43,857 nucleotides of DNA from Clostridia bacterium (GCA_017456965.1 JAFTIJ010000178.1:1-43857); one strand, 5' to 3'. Counted from the stretch's first letter, positions 2,641 through 20,740 are shown. Made by a program: numbers and translations. The notes: generated by a model not told the origin, from the letters alone.

Positions 2641-2687
2641 AAACCTCCCGTCGGAAAGGAGCGATCCTTTCCGACGGGAGGTTTTAT
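2641..2687 (+). terminator. rho-independent terminator
   Basis: Perfect 19-bp stem (aacctcccgtcggaaagga / tcctttccgacgggaggtt) with loop gcga, running into T residues, 13 nt after the stop codon. Confidence 0.85.
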
Positions 2688-2719
2688 ATCATGTGGGAAT
2701 ACTAAATTGTAAACAAATT

Positions 2720-2745
2720 GTGAACAATAAATTTTTTCTGCGTGA
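2720..2745 (+). promoter_or_regulatory. candidate ECF-type promoter (GTGAAC-N15-CGTGA)
   Basis: An AAC-containing -35-like element and a CGT-containing -10-like element lie about 55 nt upstream of the sigma gene. The 15-nt spacer is shorter than the usual 16-17. Confidence 0.2.
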
Positions 2746-2800: not shown

Positions 2801-3361
2801 ATGTTGATATATTTATCCATGATCGAGGTCGGAGGAGACCGAGAGAATTTTGAACGTTACTACAGAAAGTACGCCGAGGATATCTTCGGCAGAATATATT
2901 CCATCCTGAAAAACCGTGAGGACGCGGAGGACGTCATGCAGGAGACGTGGCGAACTGTCGTCGAGCACATAGCGAAATTCCGAGGGAAGGATGACCGCGA
3001 GGTCCGCGCGTATATCATGCGCATCGCACATAATCGGGCGATCGACGTGTTAAGGGGCAAAAAGCGGGAGCGGGAGCTTTTCCGTGAGCTCACCCTTGTC
3101 GAGCCGATGGAGGAGCAAGCACTCTTTGCCCTTTGCGGCGAGACCGACCCGTCCGATATTCTTGCCTGCTTTTCCTCGTTGGATGCGATTTATCGCGACG
3201 TGCTGAATCTTTATTATCTTCATGATCACTCGGTCAAGGAGATCGCAAGGCTTCTTTGCCTCTCGGAGACGGCGGTTGGCTCTCGCCTGACCAGAGGGCG
3301 CAAAAAGCTGTACGATATGATGACGGAGACAGCAAGCAAAGGAAAGGGGGAAAGAAAATGA
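2801..3361 (+). CDS. RNA polymerase sigma factor, ECF/sigma-70 family (regions 2 and 4)
   Basis: DAEDVMQETW...YIMRIAHNRAIDVLR matches region 2. YYLHDHSVKEIARLLCLSETAVGSRLTRGRKKL matches the region 4 HTH. 186 aa. Paralog of 36419..36970. Confidence 0.85.
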   Translation: MLIYLSMIEVGGDRENFERYYRKYAEDIFGRIYSILKNREDAEDVMQETWRTVVEHIAKFRGKDDREVRAYIMRIAHNRAIDVLRGKKRERELFRELTLVEPMEEQALFALCGETDPSDILACFSSLDAIYRDVLNLYYLHDHSVKEIARLLCLSETAVGSRLTRGRKKLYDMMTETASKGKGERK

Positions 3362-4122
3362 CGGAGAAGGAACGTTTGGGTAAGACGGCTCTGCTTGAGG
3401 CCATGCGGCGGTTTGATCTAACCTATCCCGAGAGCTTCCCGCGTGAGGAGACGGGGATCCCGCACTCACGGGCGTATCTGAGAGCGCTCCGCCGTCTCTC
3501 GCAGTCGATCGACCGCGTGGAGCACAGGCCACGCCTCTCTGCATGGAAGCGTGCCATGATGGTTGCGATCACGCTTACCGCCGTGCTTTTCAGCGCGGTG
3601 ACCATTTCCGCCGCGGCTACGGGGAAGAGCTTCTCGTCGTACGTAACGACGCTCTATGAATATTTTGCGGAGATCGTTTTCGGTGAGGAGGAGATCGTGG
3701 CCGCACCGGAGAAGATCGACGCCGTGTATTCGCTCTCGTGGTTTCCGCAGCATTATGCGATCGAGAGCGCGGATATCGGTGCGATGACCTCGCAGATCGT
3801 ATGGCGAAACGGCGAGGGTGACAGGCTGATCCTGCACCAGGGGCTGTTGACCTCGCACGAGCTGATGATACACGGGGAGGCGGGGCTTGAGACGCTGACT
3901 GTCAACGGAACCGAGGTCACACGCTTTGCGCGTGGCGGACAGGTCTTTTTCTTCTGGTCGCAGTATGGCTACGCCTTTGAGCTCAGCGGACCTACCACCG
4001 TGTCACGGGAGGACTACGTTCGCATGATCGAATCTCTGAGGGAATCGAGCCTTTCCCGTGACCGCACAAATTCATGGTGGACAGTATACCGCGATGCGTA
4101 TACCGTCCGAGAGGAGGAGTAG
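3358..4122 (+). CDS. single-pass membrane protein, putative anti-sigma factor with a DUF4367-like extracytoplasmic domain
   Basis: ATG 3358 overlaps the sigma stop (ATGA). One TM segment (AMMVAITLTAVLFSAVTISAA). The C-terminal domain is similar to that of 36963..37637. No zf-HC2 (H..C..C) motif. The DUF4367 assignment is from memory. Confidence 0.55.
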   Translation: MTEKERLGKTALLEAMRRFDLTYPESFPREETGIPHSRAYLRALRRLSQSIDRVEHRPRLSAWKRAMMVAITLTAVLFSAVTISAAATGKSFSSYVTTLYEYFAEIVFGEEEIVAAPEKIDAVYSLSWFPQHYAIESADIGAMTSQIVWRNGEGDRLILHQGLLTSHELMIHGEAGLETLTVNGTEVTRFARGGQVFFFWSQYGYAFELSGPTTVSREDYVRMIESLRESSLSRDRTNSWWTVYRDAYTVREEE

Positions 4123-4124
4123 GG

Positions 4125-4841
4125 ATGATGAAACGGATACTGATGCTGGGACTGATTTTGGCGATGCTGTCGGGCGTTGCCTGCGACCGTGAGCCCGTAT
4201 ATATCAATACGGCAACGACGACGACCGATTTCTGCATTTTGGATCAGGGGGTCGCGGTCGTGGATACCCGCTACATGGGCTACCGTGGGCAGACTGAGGG
4301 TGCGACCGTGTCGGTCACGGTTGAGCTTTTGGATGAGCACGGCCGCTTTCGCTCCGTGATAAGCGAGACCTATTCTGCCGAGGGATATTACCACGTGGAG
4401 CAGAGACGCTATCGGATCGAGCGGCTTGGTACCTACCGTCTCATTGTCACCTATCTTGTATCGGGTGTGGATGGCTCGACGGATACCGTTACCACGACGA
4501 GGGAATACACGATCTCGGAGGGGGCAGTTTGTCCGAGGGGCTCGGGGATCGCCTTCTGCGTCCTTGACCCTGTCCCCGACTGCGCCGCGCCCGTCGTATG
4601 TCTGCGGTGCGGGCAGACGCCCGAGGATATGAGGCAGACCGTACGTATCATGCAGTCGATGGGCGGCGTGATCGCAGACCGTGACGAGACCTATCACTAT
4701 AAGCAATGCTTCCATACTACGGCACTGGGTGTGCCTTGCACGGCGCACGGCAGAGAGGAGCATATCTACTCGGACGGCGTCTGTACAGTCTGTCAATATG
4801 CACGCACCCGTTTGTCACGGAGAACGGAGGTGTCGGAATGA
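4125..4841 (+). CDS. probable secreted/lipoprotein with shared N-terminal domain and Cys/His-rich C-terminus
   Basis: GAGGAGGAG lies 5 nt upstream of ATG 4125. Signal peptide MMKRILMLGLILAMLSGVAC (non-canonical lipobox). Paralog of 4838..5521. Confidence 0.7.
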   Translation: MMKRILMLGLILAMLSGVACDREPVYINTATTTTDFCILDQGVAVVDTRYMGYRGQTEGATVSVTVELLDEHGRFRSVISETYSAEGYYHVEQRRYRIERLGTYRLIVTYLVSGVDGSTDTVTTTREYTISEGAVCPRGSGIAFCVLDPVPDCAAPVVCLRCGQTPEDMRQTVRIMQSMGGVIADRDETYHYKQCFHTTALGVPCTAHGREEHIYSDGVCTVCQYARTRLSRRTEVSE

Positions 4842-5521
4842 AGCGTAAGGGTCTTGCAATACTTTTGAGTACAGTGATGCTTTTTTTCTGCGCCTGTGCT
4901 CCGACGGAGTACGTCTATCACAATACCGCGACGGTGACGACCAATTTTTTTATTACCGAACTTGGTCTGATGGTGATCGACGTTCGCTATATGGGCTATC
5001 GGGATCGCACGGCGGGGGCGGAGATCTCTCTTGCCGTGGAGGAGAGGATGGGCGACGGCACATGGTCGGCTCTTTTTACTAAGAGCTATGCCGTCGAGGG
5101 CTACTGCTACACAGAGCAGTACACCGACTGGGTCGGGCATCTCGGTACCTACCGTCTTACCGCTTGCTATCTCGTTTTGGGACGGGACGGAAGCACGGAT
5201 ACGATCACTGCCACGCGGGAATATGTGCTGTCTGAGGGTGTTGTTTGCTCGGCGGCGGCGAACGGTGTACTTTGTCGTTATCTCCCGAACGCGGATTGCA
5301 CGGCGCCCGGCGTGTGCGAGCGGTGCAAAACGGTGCCCGAGAAGATGAAGCAGTCTGCGCATTTCCCGTCGGGAGAGGTCGTGTATTGGGATGAGACCTA
5401 TCACTACTGTCGGTGCGACCATGTTACGCCATTTGGCGATCCGTGCACCTATATCGGAGGGCGCGAGCATAGCTTCTCCGAGCAGGTCAGGGGATGTCTC
5501 TATTGCGGCTACGGAAAATAA
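4838..5521 (+). CDS. probable secreted/lipoprotein, paralog of 4125..4841
   Basis: ATG 4838 overlaps the upstream stop (ATGA). Signal peptide MKRKGLAILLSTVMLFFCAC. Motifs shared with its neighbour: D.RYMGYR, LGTYRL, GxDGSTDT, DETYHY. Confidence 0.7.
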   Translation: MKRKGLAILLSTVMLFFCACAPTEYVYHNTATVTTNFFITELGLMVIDVRYMGYRDRTAGAEISLAVEERMGDGTWSALFTKSYAVEGYCYTEQYTDWVGHLGTYRLTACYLVLGRDGSTDTITATREYVLSEGVVCSAAANGVLCRYLPNADCTAPGVCERCKTVPEKMKQSAHFPSGEVVYWDETYHYCRCDHVTPFGDPCTYIGGREHSFSEQVRGCLYCGYGK

Positions 5522-5544
5522 TATGTGATAAAAGGGAGGTTGCG

Positions 5545-6054
5545 ATGATGAAAAGGATGCTTTGCGTGCTATTGCTTGGCTGTCTGCTGCTTTCACTGTC
5601 CGCCTGTGAGCGTAACGGCACGCTTCTGCACGCGGAGAACTACGGGGAGGCGTTTCGCATGAAGAATGCGATCCTGTATCCAAACCCCGACTGCAAACAT
5701 GCGCTGATCAGCTCCTCTGCCGAAAAATATTTGAATGAGGCGGATTGCACCCGATATCATATGACGATATGTAAGCACGGCGGATGCGACTACGGGAGAC
5801 AGTTTCATCCGCATTCGATTCGGATCGGCGGTCTTATCATGTTCAATCAGGTCATACAGATGACGGACGGATATCTGTATCATCGGTATGCTGTTGCCTG
5901 TGCCGATTGTAATTTGCGCGTGGATCTGTATTCGCCCTGCGAGGTGCAGCGCCTTGATTGCAATACACAGGAGACGGCAAAAAGGAATGGGTGCCTCAAT
6001 AAAAATTGGGAGGAGATCTTATGCGATACACCTTACGAAATATTGTACGATTGA
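5545..6054 (+). CDS. Cys/His-rich lipoprotein of unknown function
   Basis: AAGGGAGG precedes ATG 5545. Canonical lipobox LSLSAC. Paralog of 10076..10624 with conserved Cys/His positions and a NWEEI...PYE(I/L)L C-terminus. Confidence 0.75.
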   Translation: MMKRMLCVLLLGCLLLSLSACERNGTLLHAENYGEAFRMKNAILYPNPDCKHALISSSAEKYLNEADCTRYHMTICKHGGCDYGRQFHPHSIRIGGLIMFNQVIQMTDGYLYHRYAVACADCNLRVDLYSPCEVQRLDCNTQETAKRNGCLNKNWEEILCDTPYEILYD

Positions 6055-7487
6055 AGACGAGAACGCTTCTGACTCTGCTGATTTCCTTTGCGATCCTATT
6101 TCTTTCCATGTTCGGCGTTCTTGTGATGCGGCTCTGTGAGGATAACCGTGCCATGTTTTACGGTCCCTTGGACGGTTCGGTTCACGTCACCGATGCTGAA
6201 TATCAGCCCTTCATGACCTATCATGCGGCGATGACGATCGGTGAGGATGCCGATCTCGTCACACGTGTCTCCGCCGTCAAAGCCTATAGCGGCATTTTGG
6301 AAGACGTGTCCTACGTTGGGTACGGTACCTTCCGCAGAGCGCGTTTTACAGGTGAAGTCTCGACGGATGAGGACAGAAAGATGAATTACGTCAAGGGCTT
6401 TCGCATCGTTGCCGTCAGCGAAATGGAGATGCTGGAGGACGTTTTCTCGGGGAAGCTCACGATGGTGCAGGGAAGGATGCTGACACGGGAGGATCACGAG
6501 AGCGCTGCCGATCGGATCGTGATCTCTGAGGAGCTTGCCCTGCAAAACGGTCTATCTCTCGGGGATACCGTAACGCTGGATATGCCCTCTCTCTACCGTA
6601 CGGAGTGGGAGTCCCGCTTCTACGCCGGGTCAGACGAGGCGAGCGGGTACGATTTTGTGATCAGCGGCATCTACCGACACCGCGAGGACAACCGCGCGGG
6701 CGTCAATATGCCGTGGCTGCTGAACGCAAATCAGGTATATATCCCGATATCTACTTTGGCGGAGATCGCGGAATGTGAAACCGTCCTGTCGCTTTATCAC
6801 ACTGAGGGGGAGGATGCGCTGAGCGAAAACCCGTGTCTTATCCCCGATTCACTCTATCTGCATCTCTCTGATATGAACCGAGCGCAAGCGCTCTCGGACG
6901 AGCTGAATGCGCTCGGGTTTCTGAGAAGAGTGATCCTGACCGAGTACGTCTCCGATGCGTCGAGCTCACCGACGGCTCGCCTCTCTGAGATCACTGCGAT
7001 CATCCTTGTCGGTATCGTTGCCATCGGTTTTCTCGTATTGCTGCTCTCTGCGCTCTTTCAGATGAAGACGAGACACCGCGAGCTTGCCGTTCTGACCGCA
7101 CTTGGGAAAAGGCGGCGTCGGGTCGCGCTCTCGTTTTTTGCGGAGCTCTGTCTGCTTCTTGCCGTCGCCTTTTTGGGTGCGGGTGCTCTGATCTGTGCCG
7201 TGGTATTCGTGATCGCGGCACCGCTTGTCGGCTATCTTCACGCCGCAGAGCTCTCCGAGCAGATCCTGACGGAGACGGCGGCGCACGTCCTCTCGGGGGC
7301 GGCGTCCGACGCGCAGACCCTGATCGGACAAATGGAGAATTACGACTTTCTGCTTTTGGAATACGTTTTTCCCTGTATCTCGTTTGCCGCGGCGGTCTGG
7401 TTTTGCCTGATGGGGGTGCTTTTGGTCATTACACAGATATACGTCGGACGGATCAACGCGCTGTCGGATGTCGGCGGAAAGGAGTAG
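6021..7487 (+). CDS. ABC transporter permease, FtsX/MacB family (type 1: TM1, large extracytoplasmic domain, TM2-4)
   Basis: GGAGGAG precedes ATG 6021, which lies inside the 3' end of the previous gene. N-terminus MRYTLRNIVRLKTR. FtsX-type segment FQMKTRHRELAVLTALGKRR followed by hydrophobic helices. Confidence 0.85.
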   Translation: MRYTLRNIVRLKTRTLLTLLISFAILFLSMFGVLVMRLCEDNRAMFYGPLDGSVHVTDAEYQPFMTYHAAMTIGEDADLVTRVSAVKAYSGILEDVSYVGYGTFRRARFTGEVSTDEDRKMNYVKGFRIVAVSEMEMLEDVFSGKLTMVQGRMLTREDHESAADRIVISEELALQNGLSLGDTVTLDMPSLYRTEWESRFYAGSDEASGYDFVISGIYRHREDNRAGVNMPWLLNANQVYIPISTLAEIAECETVLSLYHTEGEDALSENPCLIPDSLYLHLSDMNRAQALSDELNALGFLRRVILTEYVSDASSSPTARLSEITAIILVGIVAIGFLVLLLSALFQMKTRHRELAVLTALGKRRRRVALSFFAELCLLLAVAFLGAGALICAVVFVIAAPLVGYLHAAELSEQILTETAAHVLSGAASDAQTLIGQMENYDFLLLEYVFPCISFAAAVWFCLMGVLLVITQIYVGRINALSDVGGKE

Positions 7488-7553
7488 GGGCTTCGTGCTT
7501 TCCTTTGTGTTGCGAGGATCTGCGCTGATCGAAAAAATATAAAGGAGTTTGCC

Positions 7554-9392
7554 ATGCTTATCAAATTTGCATTTCGGAATCTGCGCCGTCTTCCGTGGAG
7601 AACGGTGCTCTACAGCTCTGCGGTCTTTCTTGTTATCCTTGCGATGACCGCATCGCTCCTTGTTCTGTGTGCGTGTGAAAACGCGAGGACGACGCTGGAG
7701 GAGGAATATATGTTTGTTGCATCTCTCGTGCACCGTCCCAATACCAACGTCTATATGTCGGACGTCGGGCTCTGCACGCAGGGGAATGAGATCCTTGGCA
7801 TAAATCTTGCCATGGCGGAGGGGCAAGCGGTGATCCCGGGCGGTGTGCATATGACGGAGTATCCCGATGAGGACAATATGCCGTCCGAGCCCTCTGCCTT
7901 GTATATGGAGCCGTTCGGATGCAATCTGTTTGCCGTGGAAAATCTCTCGATGGTCTATCCCTTTTTTACGGGGGAGTACACCATTCGGGAGGGAACGGGA
8001 CTGACCGCCGAGGGATATACGGGAGAGCGCGCGGAGCTTGTCATTCCGTGGTGGCTTGCGGATCAATACGGTATCGGCGTTGGCGATACCGTCATGCGGC
8101 GGTATAATCATTACGGTCACAATAATAACGGCCATTACAGCTATCGTGAGTGCACGGTCGTCGGGATCTACGAGGCAAAAAACAAGAGCGCATCCCCCGA
8201 CAGCTATCCTGCATATATGACGGTCGGCAGAGCGGAGCGTGATTACGATAACTTTTTTATTCCAAGAACCGTCACGCCCATCGTCCTTGACCGCGTGGAT
8301 TTCGTGCTTCGGGGACGGGATAGCTTCGGCACGTTTGTAAAAACGGCAGAGGCCAACGGCCTTGCGCTTGACCGCGTGGATCTGGTCTTTAACAATGCCA
8401 CCTACGATACGCTCCTTGCTGAGCTTGACAGTATTCGGACGGTCGCCCTCTTTGTTTTTCTGACCGTCCTTACCGTAGGGCTTGGCGTGCTCATTTTCTT
8501 TACGGTGCTTCTTTGTCATACGCGGGAGCGCGAGCGCCGTTTGCTCGTGTCCCTCGGTATGACAAGAGGCGGCGTTTGCAGGATGCTCGCATGGGAGCTT
8601 GCCGTGATGCTGCTCGTTGCCGTAACGCTCGGACTTGGCGTCGGGTATCTTGCGGCGGAGGGCGTTTGCTCCTATGTCAACGGGAGCGTGCTTGCGCGGG
8701 CTTCCGCATCACAGAGAGTCCGTAACCTTTCGTCGGACGAGGCCTTTGACGAGACGATGCCGCTGGAGAAAAGGATCGAGCTCTCCGTTTCCGTCTTTGA
8801 CACAACGGTATCGGCAAGCGCGCTCTATTTCAATTCGATGTGTCTGCCGGATGAAAATGAACTTGGTATCAGCCGTCTGACGCTTCCGTTTATCGAAACG
8901 GGCGAAAACGGTTATCCCCGTGAGGGGATTGAAAACGGCGTGTGGCATCCGACGACGATCGTTGCCGTTACCGACCCAGACGCCGTTGGCGTTTCGGTTT
9001 CGACCGAGGCGCTGAGAGCAAGGGCGGATTACAATCCGTATTCCATTTATATGTATGTCAGCGAGAGCTCGCCGTTTGCGCCCAAGGACGGTGACGACGG
9101 TCTGCTTCGTCTGTATTTTGGCAAGGATATGCAGGGCTGTGTTTCAGTCGTCGACGATTTCGCGATACGTCTTGGCGGTGAGCCGTTGGTTCGATACGGA
9201 CGGGAAAACGTGGCCGGTATCGTAGCGGCGTACGTCATCGGCACCTATCGGGACAACGCACTCTGCTCGGGAGAGGACGTCCTGATCTGTATGGAGGATT
9301 ACCACGATATGTTCGAGGCGCTTTCGGTGGATTTTGGCGGCTTTCGGTTTGAGCGGATCGGCCATATCATCAATAAGGAGGAATTGCAATGA
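7554..9392 (+). CDS. ABC transporter permease, FtsX family (type 2: atypical, long soluble C-terminal domain)
   Basis: AAAGGAG RBS. N-terminus MLIKFAFRNLRRLPWRT. FtsX-type loop HTRERERRLLVSLGMTRGG. By eye there is no hydrophobic stretch in the last 220 or so residues. Confidence 0.8.
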   Translation: MLIKFAFRNLRRLPWRTVLYSSAVFLVILAMTASLLVLCACENARTTLEEEYMFVASLVHRPNTNVYMSDVGLCTQGNEILGINLAMAEGQAVIPGGVHMTEYPDEDNMPSEPSALYMEPFGCNLFAVENLSMVYPFFTGEYTIREGTGLTAEGYTGERAELVIPWWLADQYGIGVGDTVMRRYNHYGHNNNGHYSYRECTVVGIYEAKNKSASPDSYPAYMTVGRAERDYDNFFIPRTVTPIVLDRVDFVLRGRDSFGTFVKTAEANGLALDRVDLVFNNATYDTLLAELDSIRTVALFVFLTVLTVGLGVLIFFTVLLCHTRERERRLLVSLGMTRGGVCRMLAWELAVMLLVAVTLGLGVGYLAAEGVCSYVNGSVLARASASQRVRNLSSDEAFDETMPLEKRIELSVSVFDTTVSASALYFNSMCLPDENELGISRLTLPFIETGENGYPREGIENGVWHPTTIVAVTDPDAVGVSVSTEALRARADYNPYSIYMYVSESSPFAPKDGDDGLLRLYFGKDMQGCVSVVDDFAIRLGGEPLVRYGRENVAGIVAAYVIGTYRDNALCSGEDVLICMEDYHDMFEALSVDFGGFRFERIGHIINKEELQ

Positions 9393-10054
9393 AAATTCTT
9401 GACTTGAACGGCATCAGCTACGATTATACCACGAAGGCGGGCAAGGTACACGCGCTGAAGGAGGCGACGGCGAGCTTTGAGACGGGCGTGGTCTACGCCA
9501 TCGTCGGCCGCTCGGGTAGCGGCAAATCCACGCTGATGTCGCTGATGGCGGGTCTGGACGTTCCGAGGGACGGGGACGTCCGTTATCGGGGCGAAAGTCT
9601 GCTATCCATGGACCGCGACCGCTATCGCAGAGAGCACGTTGGCATGATCTTCCAGAGCTACTATCTTCTCCCTCAACTCACCGCGGTCGAGAACGTGGAG
9701 CTCTCGCTGGAGCTTGCCAACTATAGGGGCAACAAAAGAGCGCGTGCCGAGGAGATGCTGACGCTCGTCGGTATCCGACGCGAGCAGTTCAGAAAGCGAA
9801 GCACGCAGTTCTCCGGCGGTGAGCAGCAGCGCATCGCCGTCGCACGCGCCATCGCCGCCGACCCCGAGCTGATCCTTGCGGACGAGCCGACGGGCAACCT
9901 CGACAACGAAAACAGCATGAACATCGTAGAGATCCTCACCGAGCTTGCGCATCGGTACGGGAAGTGCGTCATCATCATTACGCACGCCGCCGAGGTTGCG
10001 GAGCGAGCCGACCGCGTTCTCAGAATGGACGACGGATATCTGCGTGCCGAATGA
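9389..10054 (+). CDS. ABC transporter ATP-binding protein (MacB/LolD-type)
   Basis: Walker A GRSGSGKST, signature FSGGEQQRIAVARA, Walker B LILADEPTGNLD. ATGA overlap with the upstream permease. Confidence 0.95.
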   Translation: MKILDLNGISYDYTTKAGKVHALKEATASFETGVVYAIVGRSGSGKSTLMSLMAGLDVPRDGDVRYRGESLLSMDRDRYRREHVGMIFQSYYLLPQLTAVENVELSLELANYRGNKRARAEEMLTLVGIRREQFRKRSTQFSGGEQQRIAVARAIAADPELILADEPTGNLDNENSMNIVEILTELAHRYGKCVIIITHAAEVAERADRVLRMDDGYLRAE

Positions 10055-10661: not shown

Positions 10662-12137
10662 ATGCGATACGCGCTGAGAAACATCATCCGCCTGAGGGCA
10701 AGAAGCATTCTGAGTATGCTGATCGTCCTCTGTGTACTGCTCCTTGCCATGCTCGGCGTTTTTGTCCGACGGCTCTGCGAGGATACCCGTGCACACTTTT
10801 ACGGTCCGCTCGACGGCTCGGTTCACGTGACGGACGAATCGTATCACGGCGTCCTGAATTACGGGGCGGCGCTCACGGTCGCGGAGGACGCCGACGTCAT
10901 TACGGGCGTCTCCGCCGTCAAGGAATACACGGGGATGCTCTGCGATCTTTACTACGTCGGCTATGACGGCATGAGGCGCTACAGCTTCTCGGGTGAGGAA
11001 AAAACGGAGGATCGCAGGTCTCCGTATCTCAAGGCCTTCTCCGTCTGTGCCGTCAGCTCGATGGCGATCTTGCCGGAGGTCTACGGCGGTGACCTTACTC
11101 TTTTGGGTGGCTCCATGATTACGGATGCAGATACGGCGGAGATCGAAAACAAGATCGTGATCTCCGAGGCGCTTGCCATGTAAAATGGGCTTTCTCTCGG
11201 GGATACGGTCGTTTTGCATACGCTCTCTCTTTTTTACGAGGAATATACCCTTTGCAAATATCTTCAGCTTTCGGAGAGCGAGGGGCTCTCGCCGCCCACG
11301 CGGGCGTACGTGATCGGTGGGATCTACCGCCACGCCGTGGATAATGCGGCGGCAGTCTCCGAGCCGTGGTCGCTCCACGCGAATACTGTGTATATTCCGA
11401 TCTCCACGGTAAGCGAGGTCGCGGAATCCGAGGCGATACGGGAGCTCTACGGCAGTCAGGGGGGCTACGCGATCAAGAGCGAGCCCCGCGTCGTTCCCGA
11501 CGCGCTGTATTTTCATCTGTCGGATATGCGTGTCGCCGAGGCGCTGGAGGAGGAGCTGAATCAGCTTGGCTTCCTTAAAACGGTCCGACTGACGGAGTAC
11601 GTTTCGGATACGGCGTCGTCTCCGTCCGTCCGCCTGTCGCAGAGCCTCTCCTACGTGCTTGTCGGCGTGATCGCTGTCGGCTTTGCGATCCTTGGGCTCT
11701 CCGTATTCTTCGATATGAAAACGCGGCACCGCGAGCTTGCGATGCTGATCGCGCTCGGCAAGCGGCGGTCCCATGTGACGGGGTCCTTTTTTGCGGAGCG
11801 GGTCCTTCTGATTCTGCTTGGCGGTCTTTTGGCCACGGCGCTACTTGCTACGTTCGTTTTGCTTTGTGCCGAGCCGCTTTTGCAGTATCTGTACTCCGCG
11901 GAGCTCTCCGCGCAGTTTTACGGGGAGACTGCCGACATGGTGCTGATGAGCACGCCCGTCGGGGCGCTGATCTCGCAGAGCATGGCACGGCCGTCGTATC
12001 TTATCACGGCGTATCTGCTCCCGAGCGTTGCCTTGGTGTGGGTCGCGGTCCCCGTGCTGTCGGTGATCCTTTATACCGTCGTTTTGCTTTATGCCCGTAA
12101 GATCCGACCGCTCTGTGATGTCGGAGGAAAGGAATAA
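10662..12137 (+). pseudogene. FtsX permease type 1, second copy, interrupted by an in-frame TAA at 11181-11183
   Basis: ORFs 10644..11183 and 11214..12137 are in the same frame. Homology to 6021..7487 runs across the stop: VISEALAM-stop-NGLSLGDTV versus VISEELALQNGLSLGDTV. Confidence 0.8.
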
Positions 12138-12265: not shown

Positions 12266-14077
12266 GTGATCTTCAAATTTGCTATGAGAAATCTCGTGCG
12301 TTTTCCGTAGAGGACGCTTCTGTACGGCTTCACCGTGCTTTTCGTCGTCATGACCGTGACCGCATCCTTCGTTGTCCGCGGCGCCTGTGAGCAGACGGAG
12401 CGGTCGCTGGCGCGGGACTATATCTTCGTTGCCTCTCTCGTTAAGCGCTCGGCGGCGAACGATTTCCCACTTGCCGAGGTGGTCCGATGCCTGGAGTACC
12501 CGGGCGTCGTTGCCTTCAACGCGACGCTCTCCTATGCAAACGGTGGGATCCCCGAGGGGGAGACGCTCCTTGCGTACCCGTCACGGACGGAGGGTGTGGG
12601 GGCGTCGGTCCTTTTGCCGGAGGCACTCTGTCCGATTCAGGGTGTTGAGAATCTGGCGCTGGTCTATCCCTTCTTTTCTGGGGAGTGTACGGTCCGAGAG
12701 GGAACGGGACTCACGCCAAGGGGCTATGCGGGTGAGGTGGCGGAGGTCGTCATCCCTTGGTATCTTGCCGAGCGCCACGGAATTCGGGTCGGGGATACGG
12801 TCAATCGCCGATATTACAGCGACGTTGTCGGAGACGACGGTTATTGGTATATCCCGACGGTCGTCGTCGGGATCTATGAGACCTCCGCCCCCGACCCCGA
12901 GACGGAGGACTATCCCGCCTATATGCCGCTTGCCGTGACCGAGCTTGATTTCGGTGAGCTACAGTATGATGAGCGCGTTTTCAATATGTCGGAGCATCAC
13001 AAGGCGGTGCGTGCGGATTTCGTTCTGGAGGGAAGAGAGGCATTTGCGTCGTTCGTTGCCTTTGCCAAGGAACGCGGCGTCAATTTTCAGAACGTGAATA
13101 TGGTATTCAATAACAGCACCTACGACGTGCTTGCCTCGGAGATCGGCAACATCCGCATGATTGCGACGATCGTATGGATCTCCGTGATCGTGGTCGGCCT
13201 TGGTATTCTGATCTTTTTCACGGTCTATTTGTATCATGCGAGAGACAAGGAGCGACTTCTCCTCGGCTCGCTCGGTATGAAAAGGGGCGCGGTGCGCGGC
13301 ACGATCGCGTTGGAGCTGATCGTGCTTTTCGTCGTCTTTGCGGTGATGGGCCTCGGCGTCGGTGAGCTTGCCGCCGAGGCACTTTGCCGCACGGTCGATG
13401 ACACCGTGCTTGCCCGTGCGTCGGCCTCCGATGCGGTCAGGGACGTGACCTCCGCCTCCGAGTTTGACATCACCATGCCGCTTGAAAAAAATATGCGGCT
13501 TCGCATCCTCGGACGGGATGACGGCACGGAGGAGCCAAGCCTTGCGTGGAACCGCATCGTTCGTCTTGCCGAGGACGAGCTCGGCGTATCAAGGCATCGG
13601 CTCTTCGTTTACCAAACGATATCGGAGCTTCGGAAATACGCGCCTCCCTACGTTCCGACCGCAGAGGAAACCATGGAGATTTTTACGAGGGAGCGTACCG
13701 CCGTGGACGTCATCGGCGTGACCGATCTTTCCGCCTTCATTTTGCACGAGACGTCAGGTGTGCAGAATGAGCAGGCGATACGGTTGTACGTCAGCGAGGA
13801 TTTCTGCTACAGGGACGAGGGCAGTCTCTTTTTGTGCAGATTCAACGCGGGGGATACCTTTTTTAACGACGTCAGCTACACCCGATTCATGCCGTCGATG
13901 CCCTGCAGGAGCTATAGGGTGGTCATTGCGGGAACCTATGAGAAAAACGAATTTTGCTCGGGAAACGAGGTTCTCGTTTCCATGGAGGACTACCACAAGC
14001 TCTACAGCCTGATCTCTCTCACCGATCCCGACTACCATTTCCATCGCATCGGTGAGGTCGTGTCCGCTTCTCATTAA
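12266..14077 (+). pseudogene. FtsX permease type 2, second copy, interrupted by an in-frame TAG at 12308-12310
   Basis: GGAGGAGGG RBS and GTG 12266 give VIFKFAMRNLVRFP-stop-RTLLYG, versus MLIKFAFRNLRRLPWRTVLYS in 7554..9392. Same frame as ORF 12335..14077. Confidence 0.8.
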
Positions 14078-14102: not shown

Positions 14103-14150
14103 ATTCTCCGCGGAGAATCATGATCCCCGACGGTCAAATCCGTCGGGGAT
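14103..14150. terminator. hairpins between convergent genes
   Basis: Palindrome attctccg/cggagaat at 14103-14118. An 11-bp stem atccccgacgg/ccgtcggggat at 14123-14150 is followed by ttgctgtttt on the + strand. Confidence 0.6.
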
Positions 14151-14182
14151 TTGCTGTTTTATAAACCGGGGATTGTAGTACG

Positions 14183-16330
14183 TTATCCGCTTTCCTTTGG
14201 CTCGAAGGGGATCTTGTGCGATTTTGCGTAGCGGTGCGCGTAGCTGCCCTTGCGGGCGCGGACAGAGAGGGCGCGGCACCCGTAAAACGCCATGGCGGAG
14301 ATCTTTTTGACGCTCTCGGGGATCTCGATGCAGGCGAGCGCGGTGCACGTCGCAAACGCGAGGCCGTCGATCTGCGGGATGCCCTCGCAGAGCGTGATCT
14401 TGCGCAGATTGGGACAAGATGCGAAGGCAAAGGGATATATACGCTGCACGGTACTCGGAATGACGACGGAGCACAGATTTTCCTGCTCCGCAAGCGCACG
14501 GATACCGACCGTATGAATATCGCTTGGAATCGTCAGATCTTCGGATACGGAGAAGGCGTCGTACAGGACGCCGTTTACTGCGACCAGCCCGTTTGGATCG
14601 GACAGTGCCCTGCATCCGTCGAAGGCCCCAAGTCCGAGCGTGACGGCTTTTGCGGGCGGCGCGGAAAGCACGAGCTCGGCGCAGTTGCGAAATGCGTCGC
14701 GCCCGATCTCGCGAAGCGTCTCCGGAAGTGTCAGCTCCTTAAGCTTGACACAATGGCAAAAGGCGGCTTCCTCGATGGTTTGCAACTGTTTCGGAAGCGT
14801 AAGCTTCTCAAGCCGTATACACTCGCGAAAGGCACTGTCCCCGATCGTTACGACGCTATCGGGGAGGGTGACCTTCGTTAGCCCCTCGCAATAGGTAAAG
14901 GCGCTGTCCCCGATCATCGCGACGGTATTGGGGAGGGTGACCTCCGTTAACCCCTCGCAACCGTAAAAGGCATGGGTTGGCACGGATTGGAGCCCGCCAT
15001 AGAACGTGACCGCCTCCAGCGTTGTGCACACGCGGAAGGCGGCGTGCCCAAGCTGTCGGAGTCCCTTGCCGAAGCGGACGTGTCGGAGCTTCAGGCAATG
15101 TTCAAAGGCGCTTTCCTCAATCACGGTAACGCTGTCGGGGATCTCGATCTCCTCAAGCTCCTCGCAGTGTGAAAACGCCGCTTTGCCGATTCGTGTGACG
15201 GTGTCGGGGAGCGACGCGCGCCTTAGCGCCGTACAGCCGAAAAACGCACGATCTCCGATCTCGGTCACGCCCGACTCGATCTGTACCGTTTCGATCGACG
15301 CGTCGTTATAAAAGGCGTGGCCCTTGATGGAGACCGTATGCCCCTCGATGATGCCGGGAATCTGCAGATTGCCGTCTCGCCCCTTGTATTCGCTGATCTG
15401 ATAGGTGCCGTCCTTACGCCGCCCGACGGAAAACAGGCGGCGATGATCCGCGAGCGTCTTCTCGACCAGCCCGAATTCCTTGTCGATACGGTCGGCGTCC
15501 ATTTGCGCTAACTGCTCCGCAGTATACCGCTCGTTTTTGTATTGGAGCAGAAGAAGGCGGGTGGCGGCATCCTTGGCAAGCTCGATATAGCCGTCGAGCT
15601 CGTCGACGGAGAGCTTGCGCACACGGGAGAGCAGGGCGGCGGTCCGTTCCGCGTCGCCTGTGTAAAGAAACGTGTGAAAGAGCTCCGTGCGGATGGGCTT
15701 GGAGATCAGATAGCGGAGAAGCTCCTTGTGCAATGGCGGCGGTGCACCGATCTCGTCGTCGAGGAAGGCGATGAGCAGATCGATGTCGTTAAACATCCTG
15801 AGCACCTTTTTGGCGTCAGGCGTATACGTGGGATCGAACGCGAACGAAAGGGCGCGGAATTCGTGAAAACGGTTAAAGGCGCCGAGGCCGAAGCTTTTTA
15901 CCGTAGAGGGAATCGTGAGGCGCCCGATCTTATCGCATCCCGTGAAGGCGTGATTACCGATGCTCTCCAACCCCTCGTTCAAGGTAAGCTCGCATAGCGC
16001 ATTGCAATGGAGAAACGCCAGATCTCCGATCGTGCGTACACTCGTGGGGAGCACGACGCGCCGCAGGCGGCTACAGTCGGAGAATGCCGCCTCACCGATC
16101 GAGACAACTCCCTGCGGCAGGACGAGCTCCTTTAGATTCTTACACTCCCAAAATGCGCGTTCGGCAATTTCCGATACACTGTCGGGTAAGAGGAGCGTGT
16201 GCAGGCTTTCGCATTTCTCGAAGGCTCTCTCTCCGATCTCCGTTACACCGTCGGGGACGGCAACTGTTTCCGCGTCGCCCCGATATTTTTTCAAAATGAG
16301 GTTTTCAATCAAAAAATCATGCGCCGACAT
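14183..16330 (-). CDS. leucine-rich repeat protein (BspA-type LRR_5 repeats), no signal peptide
   Basis: Repeating units of the form (I/V)P..V..IG..AF..C..L..(V/L).LP sit at both ends around a helical middle region. Start is set at ATG 16330 (MSAHDF), 9 nt after AAAGGAGA. The alternative upstream start is 16354. Confidence 0.8.
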   Translation of the reverse strand: MSAHDFLIENLILKKYRGDAETVAVPDGVTEIGERAFEKCESLHTLLLPDSVSEIAERAFWECKNLKELVLPQGVVSIGEAAFSDCSRLRRVVLPTSVRTIGDLAFLHCNALCELTLNEGLESIGNHAFTGCDKIGRLTIPSTVKSFGLGAFNRFHEFRALSFAFDPTYTPDAKKVLRMFNDIDLLIAFLDDEIGAPPPLHKELLRYLISKPIRTELFHTFLYTGDAERTAALLSRVRKLSVDELDGYIELAKDAATRLLLLQYKNERYTAEQLAQMDADRIDKEFGLVEKTLADHRRLFSVGRRKDGTYQISEYKGRDGNLQIPGIIEGHTVSIKGHAFYNDASIETVQIESGVTEIGDRAFFGCTALRRASLPDTVTRIGKAAFSHCEELEEIEIPDSVTVIEESAFEHCLKLRHVRFGKGLRQLGHAAFRVCTTLEAVTFYGGLQSVPTHAFYGCEGLTEVTLPNTVAMIGDSAFTYCEGLTKVTLPDSVVTIGDSAFRECIRLEKLTLPKQLQTIEEAAFCHCVKLKELTLPETLREIGRDAFRNCAELVLSAPPAKAVTLGLGAFDGCRALSDPNGLVAVNGVLYDAFSVSEDLTIPSDIHTVGIRALAEQENLCSVVIPSTVQRIYPFAFASCPNLRKITLCEGIPQIDGLAFATCTALACIEIPESVKKISAMAFYGCRALSVRARKGSYAHRYAKSHKIPFEPKESG

Positions 16331-16374
16331 GGCGTAGCGTCTCCTTTTTCTCATGTTGTCGTTTGGGATGCGGA

Positions 16375-16440: not shown

Positions 16441-17856
16441 TCAGCCCTCGTCGGCCTCGGTCGGGGCACTTGCCTGTGCTGCCTTGCCGCCGGCAAAGCC
16501 TGCGAGCAGGCTCGAAAGGTCGATGCCCGTGGACTGCTTGACGCCCTCCATGATCTGGTCGGCGCTGGTCATCACGTCGCGCACGAGCCTTGTGGAGTTG
16601 CCGTCGCCGTACATAACGATCTTGTCGGTCTGTGCAAGCGGTGCGGCGGCGTTCTTGACGACCTCGGGAAGAGCGCTGAGGTACATTTCGAGCACGGACG
16701 CTTCGCCCATCTTCTTTTGTGCCTCTGCCTTCTTTTCGATCGCCTCAGCCTCGGCAAGACCCTTTGCGCGGATACCCTCGGCCTCCTGCTCCATCGCGTA
16801 GCGGAGAGCCTCGGCCTCGGCCTTTCTCGCCTCGGCGGCGCGGACAGCCTCGTACTGACGAGCGTCGGCTTCCTTCTGGCGCTTGACGAGGTCAGCCTCC
16901 GCTTCCTTTTCGGAGCGGTACTTCATAGCGTCTGCCTGCTTCTTGATCTCAGCGTCGAGCTCGCGCTCCTTGATGGCGATCTCCTTCTCGGCAAGCTCCG
17001 CCTCCTTTTCGCGGCGGGCGATGTCGGCGTTGGTCTTGGCGATCTCGATGATCTTACGCTGATTTTCCTGTTGGATGGAGTAGGCGGCGTCTGCCTCTGC
17101 GCGCTTGGTGTCGGCGCGCACCTTCATGTCGGCCTGCTGAACGGCAAGCTCGGCATTCTGCTCGGCGATCTTCTTTTCCGCCTCTACCTTGACGGCGTTT
17201 GCCTCCTGCTGTGCCTTGGAGGTCGCGATGGCGATGTCACGCTGTGCGTTTGCCTTGGCGATCTGTGCGTTTTTGCGGATCTGCTCGACGTTGTCGATAC
17301 CCATGTTTTCAATCGTGCCGGCGGCATCCTTGAAATTCTGGATATTGAAGTTGACGACCTCGATACCGAGCTTTTCCATGTCGGGGACGACGTTTTCCGT
17401 GATCTTCTTGGCGACGCCCTGACGGTCCTGTACCATCTCCTTGAGGCCGACGGAGCCGACGATCTCACGCATATTGCCCTCCAGCACCTGCGTGACGAGC
17501 GTGATCATCTCTGCGCGGTTCTTGCCGAGCAGGGCCTCTGCCGCGCGCTTCAGAAGCTCGGGGTCAGAGGAGATCTTGATGTTGGCGACACCGTCTACGG
17601 TGACGTTGATGAATTCGTTTGTGGGGACGGCCTCGCTTGTCTTGACGTCCACCTGCATGACGCTGAGCGAGAGGCGGTCTACGCGCTCAAAGAAGGGAAC
17701 GCGCCAGCCCGCTTTACCGATCAGGATGCGTTTTTTCCAGAGACCGGAAATGATATATGCGGTATCGGGCGGAGCCTTGAGATAGCCGAAAACGACGAAA
17801 AGCAAGATCACGCCGACGATTGCTCCAATGAGTATAAGGGTAGTGATGGGGTCCAT
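16441..17856 (-). CDS. flotillin family protein (SPFH/Band 7 domain, FloT/YqiK-like)
   Basis: N-terminal TM segment, an SPFH-like region, then a long Ala/Glu/Lys-rich coiled-coil (AEAEA, EKEAEA repeats). Start is set at ATG 17856 (MDPITT) after CAGGAGGAAG. Confidence 0.9.
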   Translation of the reverse strand: MDPITTLILIGAIVGVILLFVVFGYLKAPPDTAYIISGLWKKRILIGKAGWRVPFFERVDRLSLSVMQVDVKTSEAVPTNEFINVTVDGVANIKISSDPELLKRAAEALLGKNRAEMITLVTQVLEGNMREIVGSVGLKEMVQDRQGVAKKITENVVPDMEKLGIEVVNFNIQNFKDAAGTIENMGIDNVEQIRKNAQIAKANAQRDIAIATSKAQQEANAVKVEAEKKIAEQNAELAVQQADMKVRADTKRAEADAAYSIQQENQRKIIEIAKTNADIARREKEAELAEKEIAIKERELDAEIKKQADAMKYRSEKEAEADLVKRQKEADARQYEAVRAAEARKAEAEALRYAMEQEAEGIRAKGLAEAEAIEKKAEAQKKMGEASVLEMYLSALPEVVKNAAAPLAQTDKIVMYGDGNSTRLVRDVMTSADQIMEGVKQSTGIDLSSLLAGFAGGKAAQASAPTEADEG

Positions 17857-18054
17857 AGTGCTTCCTCCTGAAATAATTTGATCGAGCGGAGAGTGGCTTC
17901 CTTCCGACAAAAAAGAAAAGACTCTCAGCGTAGCGGCTACACTAAAAGTCTCGTTTTCATCTTTTGGATTTAGTAAGCACCGAGCTTCTGCAGTTGCTGT
18001 CCTGACGATGCGTACACACTACCGCAAGCGGTAATGAACTACTCCCTTTTCGAT
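17857..18054 (-). promoter_or_regulatory. structured 5' leader of the flotillin gene (candidate riboswitch/attenuator or small RNA)
   Basis: Lies between the predicted TSS (about 18054) and the RBS. Contains a CAUUACCG-CUUG-CGGUAGUG hairpin, a 10-position helix GUACGCAUCG/CGGUGCUUAC with one mismatch, and then an intrinsic terminator. Confidence 0.5.
17909..17950 (-). terminator. intrinsic terminator inside the flotillin leader
   Basis: On the minus strand GACUUUUAGUGUAG-CCG-CUACGCUGAGAGUC forms 14 bp including three G-U pairs, followed by UUUUCUUUUUU. The G-U pairs become A-C mismatches on the + strand, so the element is strand-specific. Confidence 0.7.
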
Positions 18055-18060
18055 GTATCC

Positions 18061-18089
18061 AGTATAGCACAAAATGGATATATTGTCAA
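18061..18089 (-). promoter_or_regulatory. sigma-70-type promoter for the flotillin leader
   Basis: Minus strand reads TTGACA (18089-18084), a 17-nt spacer ending in TGc, then TATACT (18066-18061). Confidence 0.65.
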
Positions 18090-18241
18090 GCATCCAAATC
18101 AAATTTTGTATGGATGCACAATTTTGAAAAATGGGATTTATGCAAGATAAATAGAAAAATTATCCATTTTTGAGACGCTATCCTATTATATAAATAAAGA
18201 CGCCGATATAGCATATTTCATAAATAATTCACAGAGATTTC

Positions 18242-18270
18242 TTGATTTTTTGCTTGAAACTTGATATAAT
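18242..18270 (+). promoter_or_regulatory. sigma-70-type promoter for the LysR-type regulator gene
   Basis: TTGATT (18242-18247), a 17-nt spacer with TGa immediately upstream of the -10, then TATAAT (18265-18270). It lies 38 nt upstream of ATG 18308. Confidence 0.6.
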
Positions 18271-18307
18271 AGGAGATACGATATTTGGCGGGAGGGAAGA
18301 GCACGCG

Positions 18308-19237
18308 ATGAATACGCTTCATTTCAAATACGCCGTAGAGGTCGAGCGAACGGGCTCGATCACACAGGCGGCAGAGAATCTTTTCATGGGGCAGCCCAAT
18401 CTGAGTAAGGCGATCATGGAGCTTGAGGAGACGCTCGGCTACCAGATCTTTCAGCGAACCTCCAAGGGCGTGATCCCGACAGAAAAGGGCTCTGCGTTTC
18501 TCATCTATGCCAAGAATATTCTGGCAAGCATCGAGAAGATGGAGGCGCTCTCCGACCGTCATTCGGCAGGGCAGACGCTCAGCATCGCCTTCGTTCGCAG
18601 TACCTATATCGCCTTCGCGCTCAAGACGCTGATCTCGGAAATGGACCATACGGGCAAGCTCCGTCTGAACGTGCGCGAGACCAATGCCGTCCAGATCATC
18701 AACAGCGTCGTTTCGGGCTCCTTCAGCCTTGGAATCGTGCGCTACCGACTCTTTCACGAGAAGTATTTTATGGATTACATCCGCGATAAGGATCTTGACG
18801 TCATTCCATTTTGGGAATTTGACAGCATGGTTCTAACCTCAGAACGGAATTGCCGCGAACGCGATAAAATCACGGGCAGAGACCTCGGCAGCATGACGCC
18901 CGTGAGCTTTGGCGACGAAAGTATCCCGTATCTCTCATTCGGTGAGGTGCGCCGCGAGGCAAAATCGCCCGTTGCGGATAAGGCTCTCTTTGTTTATGAC
19001 AGGGCGACGGCGTATGATTTTCTGCATACGATTCCCGATTCCTATATGCTGACGGCACCGGTCCCCCCGTCCGAGCTTGAAAAATACGGGTTGACACAGC
19101 GAAAATGCGATATTCCGAACGAGCGCTCCAAGGATGTGATCGTCTTCCAGAGGGGATACAAGCTCACCGATCTTGACCGACGCTTTATCAATATTCTCTC
19201 CGAGATCAAAAATTCGGCGGAGTTTGATCTGCGATAA
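18308..19237 (+). CDS. LysR-family transcriptional regulator
   Basis: N-terminal winged HTH LHFKYAVEVERTGSITQAAENLFMGQPNLSKAIMELEETLGYQIFQR plus a roughly 200-aa effector domain. The ORF is trimmed to ATG 18308 after GGGAGGGA. Confidence 0.85.
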   Translation: MNTLHFKYAVEVERTGSITQAAENLFMGQPNLSKAIMELEETLGYQIFQRTSKGVIPTEKGSAFLIYAKNILASIEKMEALSDRHSAGQTLSIAFVRSTYIAFALKTLISEMDHTGKLRLNVRETNAVQIINSVVSGSFSLGIVRYRLFHEKYFMDYIRDKDLDVIPFWEFDSMVLTSERNCRERDKITGRDLGSMTPVSFGDESIPYLSFGEVRREAKSPVADKALFVYDRATAYDFLHTIPDSYMLTAPVPPSELEKYGLTQRKCDIPNERSKDVIVFQRGYKLTDLDRRFINILSEIKNSAEFDLR

Positions 19238-19456
19238 CGATTCGTTTGCGGAGTTGCTATGTGTTTCTCGGAATATTGTCATTCTGAAAAAGAATGTGAG
19301 TATTCCCGATAATTTTATAAAATTCTTTGTTGCCAAAAATGGGTGTATAATGTTGTTTAATTTGTCCAAATCAAAAAACGCATTTTTTTCTCGGGAATCC
19401 TTTTCAAGTCGATAAACGCTTATTGATAAAAGAATATTGATATGCGAATTTCATAT

Positions 19457-19485
19457 TTTACATATGCTTTTTCATATGATAAAAT
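19457..19485 (+). promoter_or_regulatory. candidate promoter for the mdh-frd operon
   Basis: TTTACA, 17 nt, TAAAAT within the AT-rich spacer. Other weaker candidates exist, for example TATAAT near 19347. Confidence 0.3.
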
Positions 19486-19605
19486 AAAATCATGGTAGAG
19501 TGGATCATTGTGTACCGTTTCCGATCGTGCGATACGCGGACACAACCCGCTTTTTCACGGGCAATGCCCAAGGCACCCTCCCCGAAAGGGGAACATAAAC
19601 AAAGT

Positions 19606-19633
19606 CAAAAGGGACTTCCTTTTGTCGTTTTTT
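19606..19633 (+). terminator. weak terminator-like hairpin in the mdh leader
   Basis: CAAAAGG-GACUU-CCUUUUG followed by UCGUUUUUU. It sits 110 nt upstream of ATG 19743 and about 370 nt downstream of the LysR stop. Confidence 0.35.
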
Positions 19634-20690: not shown

Positions 20691-20740
20691 TCAAGGTAAG
20701 CAAATAACAAAAGAATAAATCAACAGAAACGGAGATCAAT

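Follow-up and report, generated by a model that had tools for sequence, protein, structure and literature searches.

Gene layout of the unit

The DNA considered here, called the window below, is a 43,857-bp contig of a metagenome-assembled genome (MAG) from an uncultured 'Clostridia bacterium', and the system in question is an operon-like unit in which an extracytoplasmic function (ECF) sigma factor and an anti-sigma-like protein precede several lipoproteins and an ATP-binding cassette (ABC) transporter with two unlike permeases, PermA and PermB (Table 1). The original prediction, made from the sequence alone, had described eight co-directional genes between positions 2801 and 10054, chained by ATGA overlaps at 3358, 4838, and 9389 and by an overlap at 6021 that measures 34 nt; all of this was found as described, the other gaps of the unit being 2-128 nt. 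What did not stand was the end of the unit at 10054. Three more genes follow, and the transcription unit continues to the terminator at 14122-14151; 11 co-directional open reading frames (ORFs), every one with a GGAGG-type ribosome-binding site upstream, sit between this hairpin and the one at 2644-2690, and no terminator was found between these two borders. None of the first eight products passed an NCBIfam equivalog cut-off, four of the eight are without a Pfam family, and the cassette is not described in the literature searched on DUF4367, type VII ABC systems in Gram-positive bacteria, YtrEF, three-helix FtsX proteins, and ECF/FtsX gene context, which bears out the earlier remark that the combination is not a named system.

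A conserved four-gene core

The core gene order was found again at every related locus examined, a recurrence that is more than chance. A scan with one genome per species returned 17 loci, distributed over nine MAGs from the guts of goat, deer, human, and other animals; two or three copies of the cassette are present in six of these MAGs. Together with contigs recovered by exact look-up, and with repeat recoveries discounted, the mapped set comprises 20 cassette copies at 18 distinct loci (designated L below) in hosts labelled Clostridia or Eubacteriales by NCBI. As far as the contig reaches, a Cys/His-rich lipoprotein, PermA, PermB, and the ATPase follow in this order at every locus; the most divergent lipoprotein looked up (P0100, E 3e-8) is likewise followed by FtsX proteins of 507 and 586 aa and by the ATPase. 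Internal stops are limited to the second module of the window, an ATPase of L010, and a disrupted PermB of L021. The two unlike FtsX-type permeases and one ATPase are thus conserved together in the LolC/LolE/LolD2 layout, and lipoproteins are obligatorily co-encoded with the transporter, both in line with the original prediction. As to conservation of the gene order as a whole, the proposal holds for the four-gene core at all loci and fails for the sigma/anti-sigma pair and the paralogous lipoproteins. The conserved core therefore consists of four genes with exchangeable front ends, and a sigma factor with three lipoproteins and a transporter is one combination of these.

Three of the four core genes also duplicate as a block. 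At L014 the trio of Cys/His lipoprotein, PermA, and PermB is doubled, both copies being intact, before a single ATPase gene, and the window shows the same duplicating unit of three genes with one shared ATPase; L015 has two Cys/His genes in tandem.

PermB and the Cys/His lipoprotein belong to small families. PermB of the window (NCBI MBQ9748801.1) has relatives in only 37 clusters (90% identity) among 5.8 billion proteins, all from uncultured gut Clostridia, 575-612 aa long and aligned end to end over 95-100% of the query. An exhaustive profile search for the Cys/His lipoprotein found only 48 representatives among 1.84 billion proteins, and the two families are equally small and share the same narrow host range. 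Apart from short fragments and one outlier, the Cys/His members are stand-alone proteins of ~130-190 aa; this outlier, P0109 (788 aa), is repetitive, probably a spurious ORF, and was ignored. Identity to the window proteins is 70-84% for the ATPase and 38-56% for PermA and PermB, and the PermA identity tree contains at least six deep lineages at 45-55% identity, which track neither the regulator type nor the upstream lipoprotein type.

Table 1. Features of the unit in window coordinates
Feature	Length	Position	Strand	Remarks
Bidirectional terminator-like hairpin		2644..2690		After the upstream GH123 gene; upstream border of the unit
ECF-type promoter-like motif		2718..2744	+	TTGTGAAC-N15-CGTG; 57 nt upstream of the sigma gene
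ECF sigma factor	186 aa	2801..3361	+	Sigma70_r2 1.4e-15, r4_2 2.1e-14; TIGR02937
Anti-sigma-like protein	254 aa	3358..4122	+	Cytoplasmic N-terminus, one TM helix (65-89), extracytoplasmic DUF4367
lipoA1 lipoprotein	238 aa	4125..4841	+	Beta-rich N-terminal domain, Cys/His-rich C-terminal region; no Pfam match
lipoA2 lipoprotein	227 aa	4838..5521	+	44% identical to lipoA1; no Pfam match
Cys/His-rich lipoprotein (core subunit 1)	169 aa	5545..6054	+	True start ATG 5545; lipobox Cys21
PermA (core subunit 2)	488 aa	6021..7487	+	Type VII ABC permease; MacB_PCD and FtsX; 4 TM
PermB (core subunit 3)	612 aa	7554..9392	+	FtsX and weak MacB_PCD; TM1, PCD-like domain, TM2, TM3, extra domain
ABC ATPase (core subunit 4)	221 aa	9389..10054	+	LolD/MacB/YbbA/YtrE type; ABC_tran 2.9e-32
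Second Cys/His lipoprotein	182 aa	10076..10624	+	35% identical to the first
PermA'		10662..12137	+	50% identical to PermA; in-frame TAA 11181-11183 (Gln in paralogue)
PermB'		12266..14077	+	38% identical to PermB; in-frame TAG 12308-12310 (Trp codon in relatives)
Intrinsic terminator-like hairpin		14122..14151	+	12 pairs, 8 of them G-C, then T-rich tail; downstream border of the unit

Two unlike permeases

PermA and PermB are only 21% identical to each other, and hydropathy gives them four and three transmembrane (TM) helices, respectively. Four TM helices per FtsX module are the rule in type VII ABC systems; PermA has them, with an unusually long loop of ~30-45 aa between TM3 and TM4, whereas PermB does not. 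The original prediction had listed PermB as an FtsX permease, and it is not an ordinary one. In an AlphaFold2 (AF2) model computed with 27 family members (pLDDT 81.7, pTM 0.77), helices 14-51, 282-323, and 338-391 form long TM/stalk helices, the first two of them separated by a domain resembling the periplasmic core domain (PCD) of MacB; the third is followed by an extra alpha/beta domain of ~220 aa (409-611) and there is no TM4. The extra domain would lie outside the cell because of this topology, and the same layout of three helices plus extra domain holds throughout the PermB family alignment. On sequence and model, one of the two permease chains breaks the four-helix rule. Pfam scans with the C-terminal domains of 10 members were empty at E up to 10, and the domain has an insignificant match to LolC (E 0.15). 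We considered an internal duplication of PermB, and discarded it when the comparison of its first outside domain with the C-terminal one gave a profile-profile probability of 1.2%.

Both chains nevertheless present the type VII permease fold, that is, an amphipathic helix, TM1, a PCD, and an FtsX-type bundle whose TM1 and TM2 stalks are long; each has kept the amphipathic helix at its N-terminus as well as the R-x-x-E...LG loop that joins TM2 to TM3. The ATPase is a nucleotide-binding subunit of the MacB/LolD/FtsE type, with E values of 1e-55 to 1e-52 against models of LolD, MacB, DevA, and FtsE and with LolD, MacB, YbbA, and YtrE as its PDB matches. Foldseek neighbours of PermB are LolE/LolC, YbbP, MacB, Spr0694-0695, YtrEF, BceB, and HrtB (10-14% identity, E 1e-8 to 1e-4), led by LolE (9rlc_E, E 1.8e-8) and then YbbP (9ge6_A). 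In profile searches against PDB, YbbP was the sole significant match of PermA (E 1.2e-4, in the TM region), and PermB matched PsdB and BceB best, at E ~1e-3 and in TM2-3 only, so that both permeases fall outside the characterised clades of antimicrobial-peptide exporters, as the original prediction required. The permease pair thus belongs to the type VII ABC superfamily and lies outside every characterised branch of it, because the structural matches are only 10-14% identical and the curated NCBIfam models all failed.

Among characterised systems, LolCDE, the type VII ABC transporter by which diderm bacteria release lipoproteins, is close in layout: it too combines two different permeases of FtsX/MacB fold with one ATPase gene and a functional link to lipoproteins, LolE is the best structural match of PermB, and LolD is the best-scoring NCBIfam model for the ATPase. 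The gene content at all loci would fit a permease heterodimer with two ATPases, a stoichiometry that is our inference. From this one could imagine, in the sense of the original prediction, that PermA and PermB grip the acyl chains of the co-encoded lipoproteins, draw these out of the membrane, and pass them on to the wall, the medium, or a carrier. DUF4367, the outside domain of the anti-sigma-like protein, presumably belongs to a LolA/LolB-like Pfam clan; a PDB profile search with that domain gave no match. A preprint ties DUF4367 to the LolA-like protein SsdC (10.1101/2025.01.13.632879), and this may be counted in favour of such extraction. Membership of the Lol family, which the original prediction had raised, is however not upheld by the curated models: PermA reaches 16.6 bits against a cut-off of 362.45 for lolCE (TIGR02212), PermB does not match it, and the ATPase remains at 186.3 bits against 307.75 (TIGR02211) and 183.7 against 360 (NF008639) for LolD. 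PermB lacks TM4 and carries an extra domain, the Clostridia/Eubacteriales hosts presumably have no outer membrane as a destination, a gene for a LolA/LolB-like carrier is absent from the core, and the unit in the window gave no Pfam match to LolA/LolB. The cassette moreover encodes its own lipoproteins within the operon; the substrates of Lol are encoded outside its operons, whereas a type VII system often has the gene of its partner beside it. We therefore regard the likeness to LolCDE as restricted to subunit layout, and lipoprotein extraction of the Lol kind as improbable.

Two further systems resemble the cassette in the mechanism that we propose for it. YbbAP-TesA of E. coli, in which a type VII ABC transporter has a lipid hydrolase as its partner (PMC12646458), shares with the cassette a MacB-fold permease with a dedicated partner outside and a YbbA-type nucleotide-binding domain. 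YbbP, however, is one chain of 10 TM helices with two PCDs, against two chains of 4 + 3 in the cassette; the partner of the latter, a Cys/His lipoprotein, shows no hydrolase signature and is of no known fold. FtsEX, with EnvC, PcsB, CwlO, or RipC, sends an ATP-driven signal to an outside partner without transport, as we propose below for the cassette, but FtsX is a homodimer of ~300 aa chains with a small outside domain, far from 488 + 612 aa. FtsEX structures match PermB only at E >0.2, the ATPase scores 176.3 bits against the FtsE cut-off of 264.85 (TIGR02673), and no peptidoglycan hydrolase domain was found in the cassette.

The Cys/His lipoprotein

The first core subunit has no Pfam match, and its conservation was read from a 33-member alignment. 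Besides the lipobox Cys21, five cysteines are invariant and four nearly so, with three invariant histidines and one nearly invariant. Invariant positions are the lipobox Cys, H52, H90, Y112-H113, C119-x2-C122, C132, Q135, C139, C150, and P163-Y164, and nearly invariant ones C50, Y71-H72, C76, C81, and C160. The AF2 model (pLDDT 86.6 overall, >90 in the folded part) is mostly beta and places the pairs C76/C81 and C119/C122 at beta-hairpin turns, as in zinc ribbons; a Foldseek search with it against PDB and viral models gave nothing better than E 0.1 and a TM-score of 0.25. The segment between anchor and domain is conserved as well (F37 invariant, L44 and F45 nearly so) and predicted to be helical, unlike the variable, flexible tether of an ordinary lipoprotein. 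With 13 conserved Cys/His ligands, cysteines in odd number, and hosts that are strict anaerobes, this protein seems to us more likely to hold several structural zinc sites than disulfides.

The link between lipoprotein and permease extends to the nucleotide level. The 34-nt out-of-frame overlap of the two genes (6021-6054 in the window) recurs in L001, L003, L005, L006, L007, L008, L010, L014, and L020, the same bases encoding the conserved C-terminus W-E-E-I-L-C-D-T-P-Y of the lipoprotein in one frame and the likewise conserved N-terminus M-R-Y-x-L-R-N of PermA in the other. Such recurrence suggests translational coupling of the Cys/His lipoprotein and PermA.

So many ligands invite the thought that the cassette handles zinc or another thiophilic metal, the outside Cys/His proteins binding it and the ABC machine loading, unloading, or exporting it. 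The core lipoprotein has nine conserved cysteines and four conserved histidines, similar YH-x3-C...C...H and C-x2-C patterns occur in the lipoA C-terminal region and in a secreted protein of ~160 aa described below, the YH-x3-C...C...H pattern being, by visual observation only, common to the lipoprotein families, and extracytoplasmic disulfides would be unlikely in gut anaerobes. The position of the pattern at beta-hairpin knuckles looks, however, like structural rather than exchangeable zinc, and a regulator of the Zur, Fur, ArsR, or CsoR type was found at no locus. We know of no type VII ABC system that moves metal ions and hold this explanation to be very improbable.

Exchangeable front ends and regulation

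A lipoprotein or secreted protein lies directly upstream of the core at 15 of the 16 loci with upstream sequence, L021 being the exception. The slot is filled by lipoA in the window, L009, and L016 and by the L003_295/L001_501 family elsewhere; profile comparison of these families aligns their signal peptides only, and they are, as judged from sequence, mutually unrelated. A shared origin of both with the Cys/His family was rejected on the same ground, hhalign having aligned signal peptides only. At L009 and L016 the upstream protein carries a plain signal peptide and lacks a lipobox, a further point against extraction of the Lol kind.

The sigma factor consists of regions 2 and 4 only and is ATGA-coupled to a single-pass protein downstream, as in ECF (group 4 sigma-70) factors; it scores 84.5 bits with TIGR02937 (cut-off 42.9) and reaches no NCBIfam subfamily or equivalog cut-off. 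The single-pass protein has one TM helix and DUF4367, and the zinc-finger motif is absent from it, just as had been noted. Homologues of it come after the sigma factor in L009, L016, and at 36963-37637 of the window. ECF258 is a group of Firmicute ECF factors with DUF4179 anti-sigma factors and an association with ABC transporters (PMC7826278). Our pair resembles it as a Firmicute ECF sigma factor with single-pass anti-sigma adjoining an ABC transporter, but the anti-sigma in the window matches DUF4367, not DUF4179. The promoter-like motif TTGTGAAC-N15-CGTG has a single match in the window, and similar motifs, TTGTCCA(A/C)-N15-CGTCT, precede the sigma genes of L009 and L016; in shuffled controls the mean was 0.26 matches, with at least one match in 23/100 shuffles. 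As a target of the sigma factor the motif is suggestive only. An ECF sigma factor is present at seven loci (window, L007, L008, L009, L012, L014, and L016) and is replaced by a helix-turn-helix regulator of the XRE type at L003, L010, L013, L017, and L021; the sigma/anti-sigma pair is therefore optional and outside the conserved core.

The window holds a second ECF sigma factor at 36419-36970, 40% identical to the first and followed by the DUF4367 anti-sigma at 36963-37637. A large protein is encoded on either side of it (33776-36385, 869 aa, and ~37549-40119, 856 aa); the N-terminal ~120 aa of both resemble the N-terminal domain of lipoA1/lipoA2, and a CGTC-containing promoter-like stretch lies at ~33713-33752. 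Sigma factor, DUF4367 anti-sigma, and lipoA-type domain may recur together as a signalling trio that does not depend on the ABC cassette. At XRE-type loci, an extra secreted Cys/His-rich protein of ~160 aa is encoded upstream of the cassette (L005 898-1386, L013 3177-3668, L019 5899-6360, L003 6494-6987), the C-terminal half of which (DC...C-x2-C...H...YHY-x2-C...C...H...C-x2-CGY) resembles, by eye, the C-terminal region of lipoA1/lipoA2. A '53-aa peptide' of L003, at first a candidate signalling peptide beside the XRE regulator, proved to be this protein in frameshifted form; it is intact in L005, L013, and L019.

Regulation of this kind brings in the Firmicute ABC systems of the FtsX family that are induced by envelope stress, BceAB/PsdAB and YknXYZ; the latter is under an ECF sigma factor in B. 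subtilis, where sigma-W controls yknWXYZ. The cassette might accordingly be a resistance or immunity pump against an antimicrobial peptide, a bacteriocin, or a membrane-active compound, working like BceAB, YknXYZ, or the pneumococcal MacAB-like Spr0693-0695, with lipoproteins that bind or sequester the compound as LanI does beside LanFEG. Resistance modules for envelope stress are typically induced through an ECF sigma factor, and the presence of one to three diverged copies in a genome, together with the deep PermA lineages, is reminiscent of the several Bce-like modules that Firmicutes carry. The outside parts also evolve at a higher rate than the ATPase, some loci combine an XRE regulator with the extra secreted ~160-aa protein, and PsdB and BceB are the best PDB sequence matches of the PermB profile. 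That match is nevertheless marginal, and BceB is a single chain of ~650 aa with 10 TM helices, its large outside domain between TM7 and TM8 and BceRS adjacent, against 3 + 4 helices here. No histidine kinase or response regulator was found in the unit of the window, and at no locus does a two-component system lie in the Bce position, none being directly adjacent; that of L001 is ~4 kb downstream, past an opposite-strand block. MacAB, YknXYZ, and DevCBA need a co-encoded membrane-fusion adaptor of the HlyD family, which in YknXYZ is YknX, and no HlyD/membrane-fusion domain was found in the cassette proteins of the window or of L001-L004. Neither BceAB/PsdAB nor YknXYZ has a Cys/His lipoprotein, the invariant Cys/His scaffold would suit a fixed structural part better than a binder that diversifies, and bacteriocin biosynthesis genes were not seen nearby. 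A resistance or immunity function seems to us unlikely on balance, though it deserves serious attention.

Second module and surroundings

The three genes that extend the unit beyond the ATPase repeat the trio in diverged form. A second copy of the contig, ENA record ERZ27256821 k141_4882 (L024), and the window disagree over 21.7 kb at 12 single bases (positions 3624, 7959, 11181, 14149, 14814, 14834, 15389, 16073, 17156, 19994, 20498, and 23414), and 11 of the substitutions are transitions; the cause could be variation within the population, or one assembly may have been deposited twice with different polishing. PermA' is intact in the ENA copy, which reads CAA (Gln) at 11181, and the TAG of PermB' is common to both copies, so that PermB' is probably inactivated or truncated at its N-terminus. 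With these stops and the differences between the copies, the second module looks decaying or polymorphic.

The surroundings of the unit are ordinary chromosomal genes. Upstream lies a GH123 gene, and convergent to the end of the unit are a 723-aa BspA-type leucine-rich-repeat protein (14183-16354, minus strand) and a flotillin-like Band_7 protein (16441-17856, minus strand). The G+C content dips to 0.47 at 18001-20000 (elsewhere ~0.55-0.58), around a LysR-type regulator gene (18242-19237). A plus-strand cluster at 19743-32865 encodes a reductive C4 (succinate) branch, with malate dehydrogenase, class II fumarase, a CCG-domain protein, several ferredoxin/Hdr-like and NAD-binding subunits, a fumarate reductase-like FAD_binding_2 flavoprotein, and a GTP-type phosphoenolpyruvate carboxykinase, and is followed by a Rex-like repressor gene (32927-33595); DAHP synthase and prephenate dehydrogenase are among the further genes of the contig. 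Skew had suggested minus-strand genes at 19.7-32.8 kb, but all 10 minus-strand ORFs there lack a Pfam match and the plus-strand ORFs are real. An anti-phage role was dismissed, PADLOC having returned only generic ABC-ATPase similarity. In one lineage (L001/L002/L018) the cassette adjoins genes of a type I restriction-modification system (HsdR, HsdS, HsdM) and of Fic-domain proteins, with an IS21-type helper gene close by, which hints at a variable genomic island.

Discussion

The functionally characterised relatives among the structural matches of PermB are described as acting by mechanotransmission on extracytoplasmic or membrane-embedded substrates or partners (PMC5985334, PMC12646458). We propose that the cassette is an asymmetric mechanotransducer of this superfamily, PermA/PermB/ATPase2, with the Cys/His lipoprotein as its fixed adaptor. 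The proposal follows from the strict linkage of lipoprotein and permeases, their joint duplication, the 34-nt overlap, the conserved membrane-proximal helix, and the fact that type VII systems act on partners outside or within the membrane; we put it forward tentatively, as an account with a little less than an even chance of being right. Gene content, synteny, fold class, and the number of TM helices are its observed basis. One PermA and one PermB would each dock one copy of the shared ATPase, in a 1:1:2 complex whose seven-helix membrane part would bear three outside domains, namely the PermA PCD, the PCD-like domain of PermB, and the C-terminal domain of PermB. ATP binding and hydrolysis inside would move the long stalk helices, and the work would be done on outside partners, no solute being carried. 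The Cys/His lipoprotein probably binds several zinc ions; kept at the membrane by its lipid anchor together with its conserved N-terminal helix, it would take the part of MacA, LolA, EnvC, or TesA elsewhere in the superfamily. The upstream lipoproteins that vary between loci (lipoA1 and lipoA2 in the window) would serve as clients or effectors and lend specificity to the individual paralogous cassettes. It is tempting to add that an envelope signal switches the cassette on through an autoregulated ECF sigma factor and its DUF4367 anti-sigma, because the cassette sits behind this pair.

Several points weigh against the mechanotransducer. A MacB-type assembly with seven TM helices is, to our knowledge, unprecedented, and the AF2 monomer model of PermB could miss a re-entrant helix or one supplied by the partner. 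The proposed zinc binding is read from residue patterns only, and the promoter motif is statistically weak in view of the shuffled controls. No enzyme domain is detectable in any of the lipoproteins, which leaves the machine with no identified activity to regulate. Finally, a resistance or immunity function would account equally well for diverged copies within one genome and for the greater variability of the outside domains compared with the ATPase.

A bolder form of the mechanotransducer proposal, which we consider unlikely as it stands but not far-fetched, is that the cassette represents a new class of type VII machine, a seven-helix heterodimer in which the fourth helix of one chain would have been swapped for a third outside domain, with a permanent multi-zinc lipoprotein of new fold, and whose task would be to extract, release, or activate surface proteins rich in Cys/His in gut Clostridia with a single membrane. 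If this is true, Gram-positive bacteria would have an equivalent of LolCDE-LolA or YbbAP-TesA that works with a new adaptor. Both the fold class and the ATPase are of familiar kinds. What the characterised members do not have is a permease of three helices bearing a third outside domain, an obligatorily heteromeric layout in bacteria presumed to have one membrane, and a dedicated Cys/His lipoprotein without a detectable structural relative. The value of the finding is limited by the narrow host range and by the fact that no host has been cultured. Type VII ABC systems nevertheless form a small set of mechanical devices of the envelope, serving division, lipoprotein sorting, efflux, and lipid extraction, and each newly understood member has brought a new partner and a new task. 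With one to three diverged copies per genome in Clostridia of the ruminant and human gut, the cassette probably matters for the way in which these bacteria deal with their surroundings.

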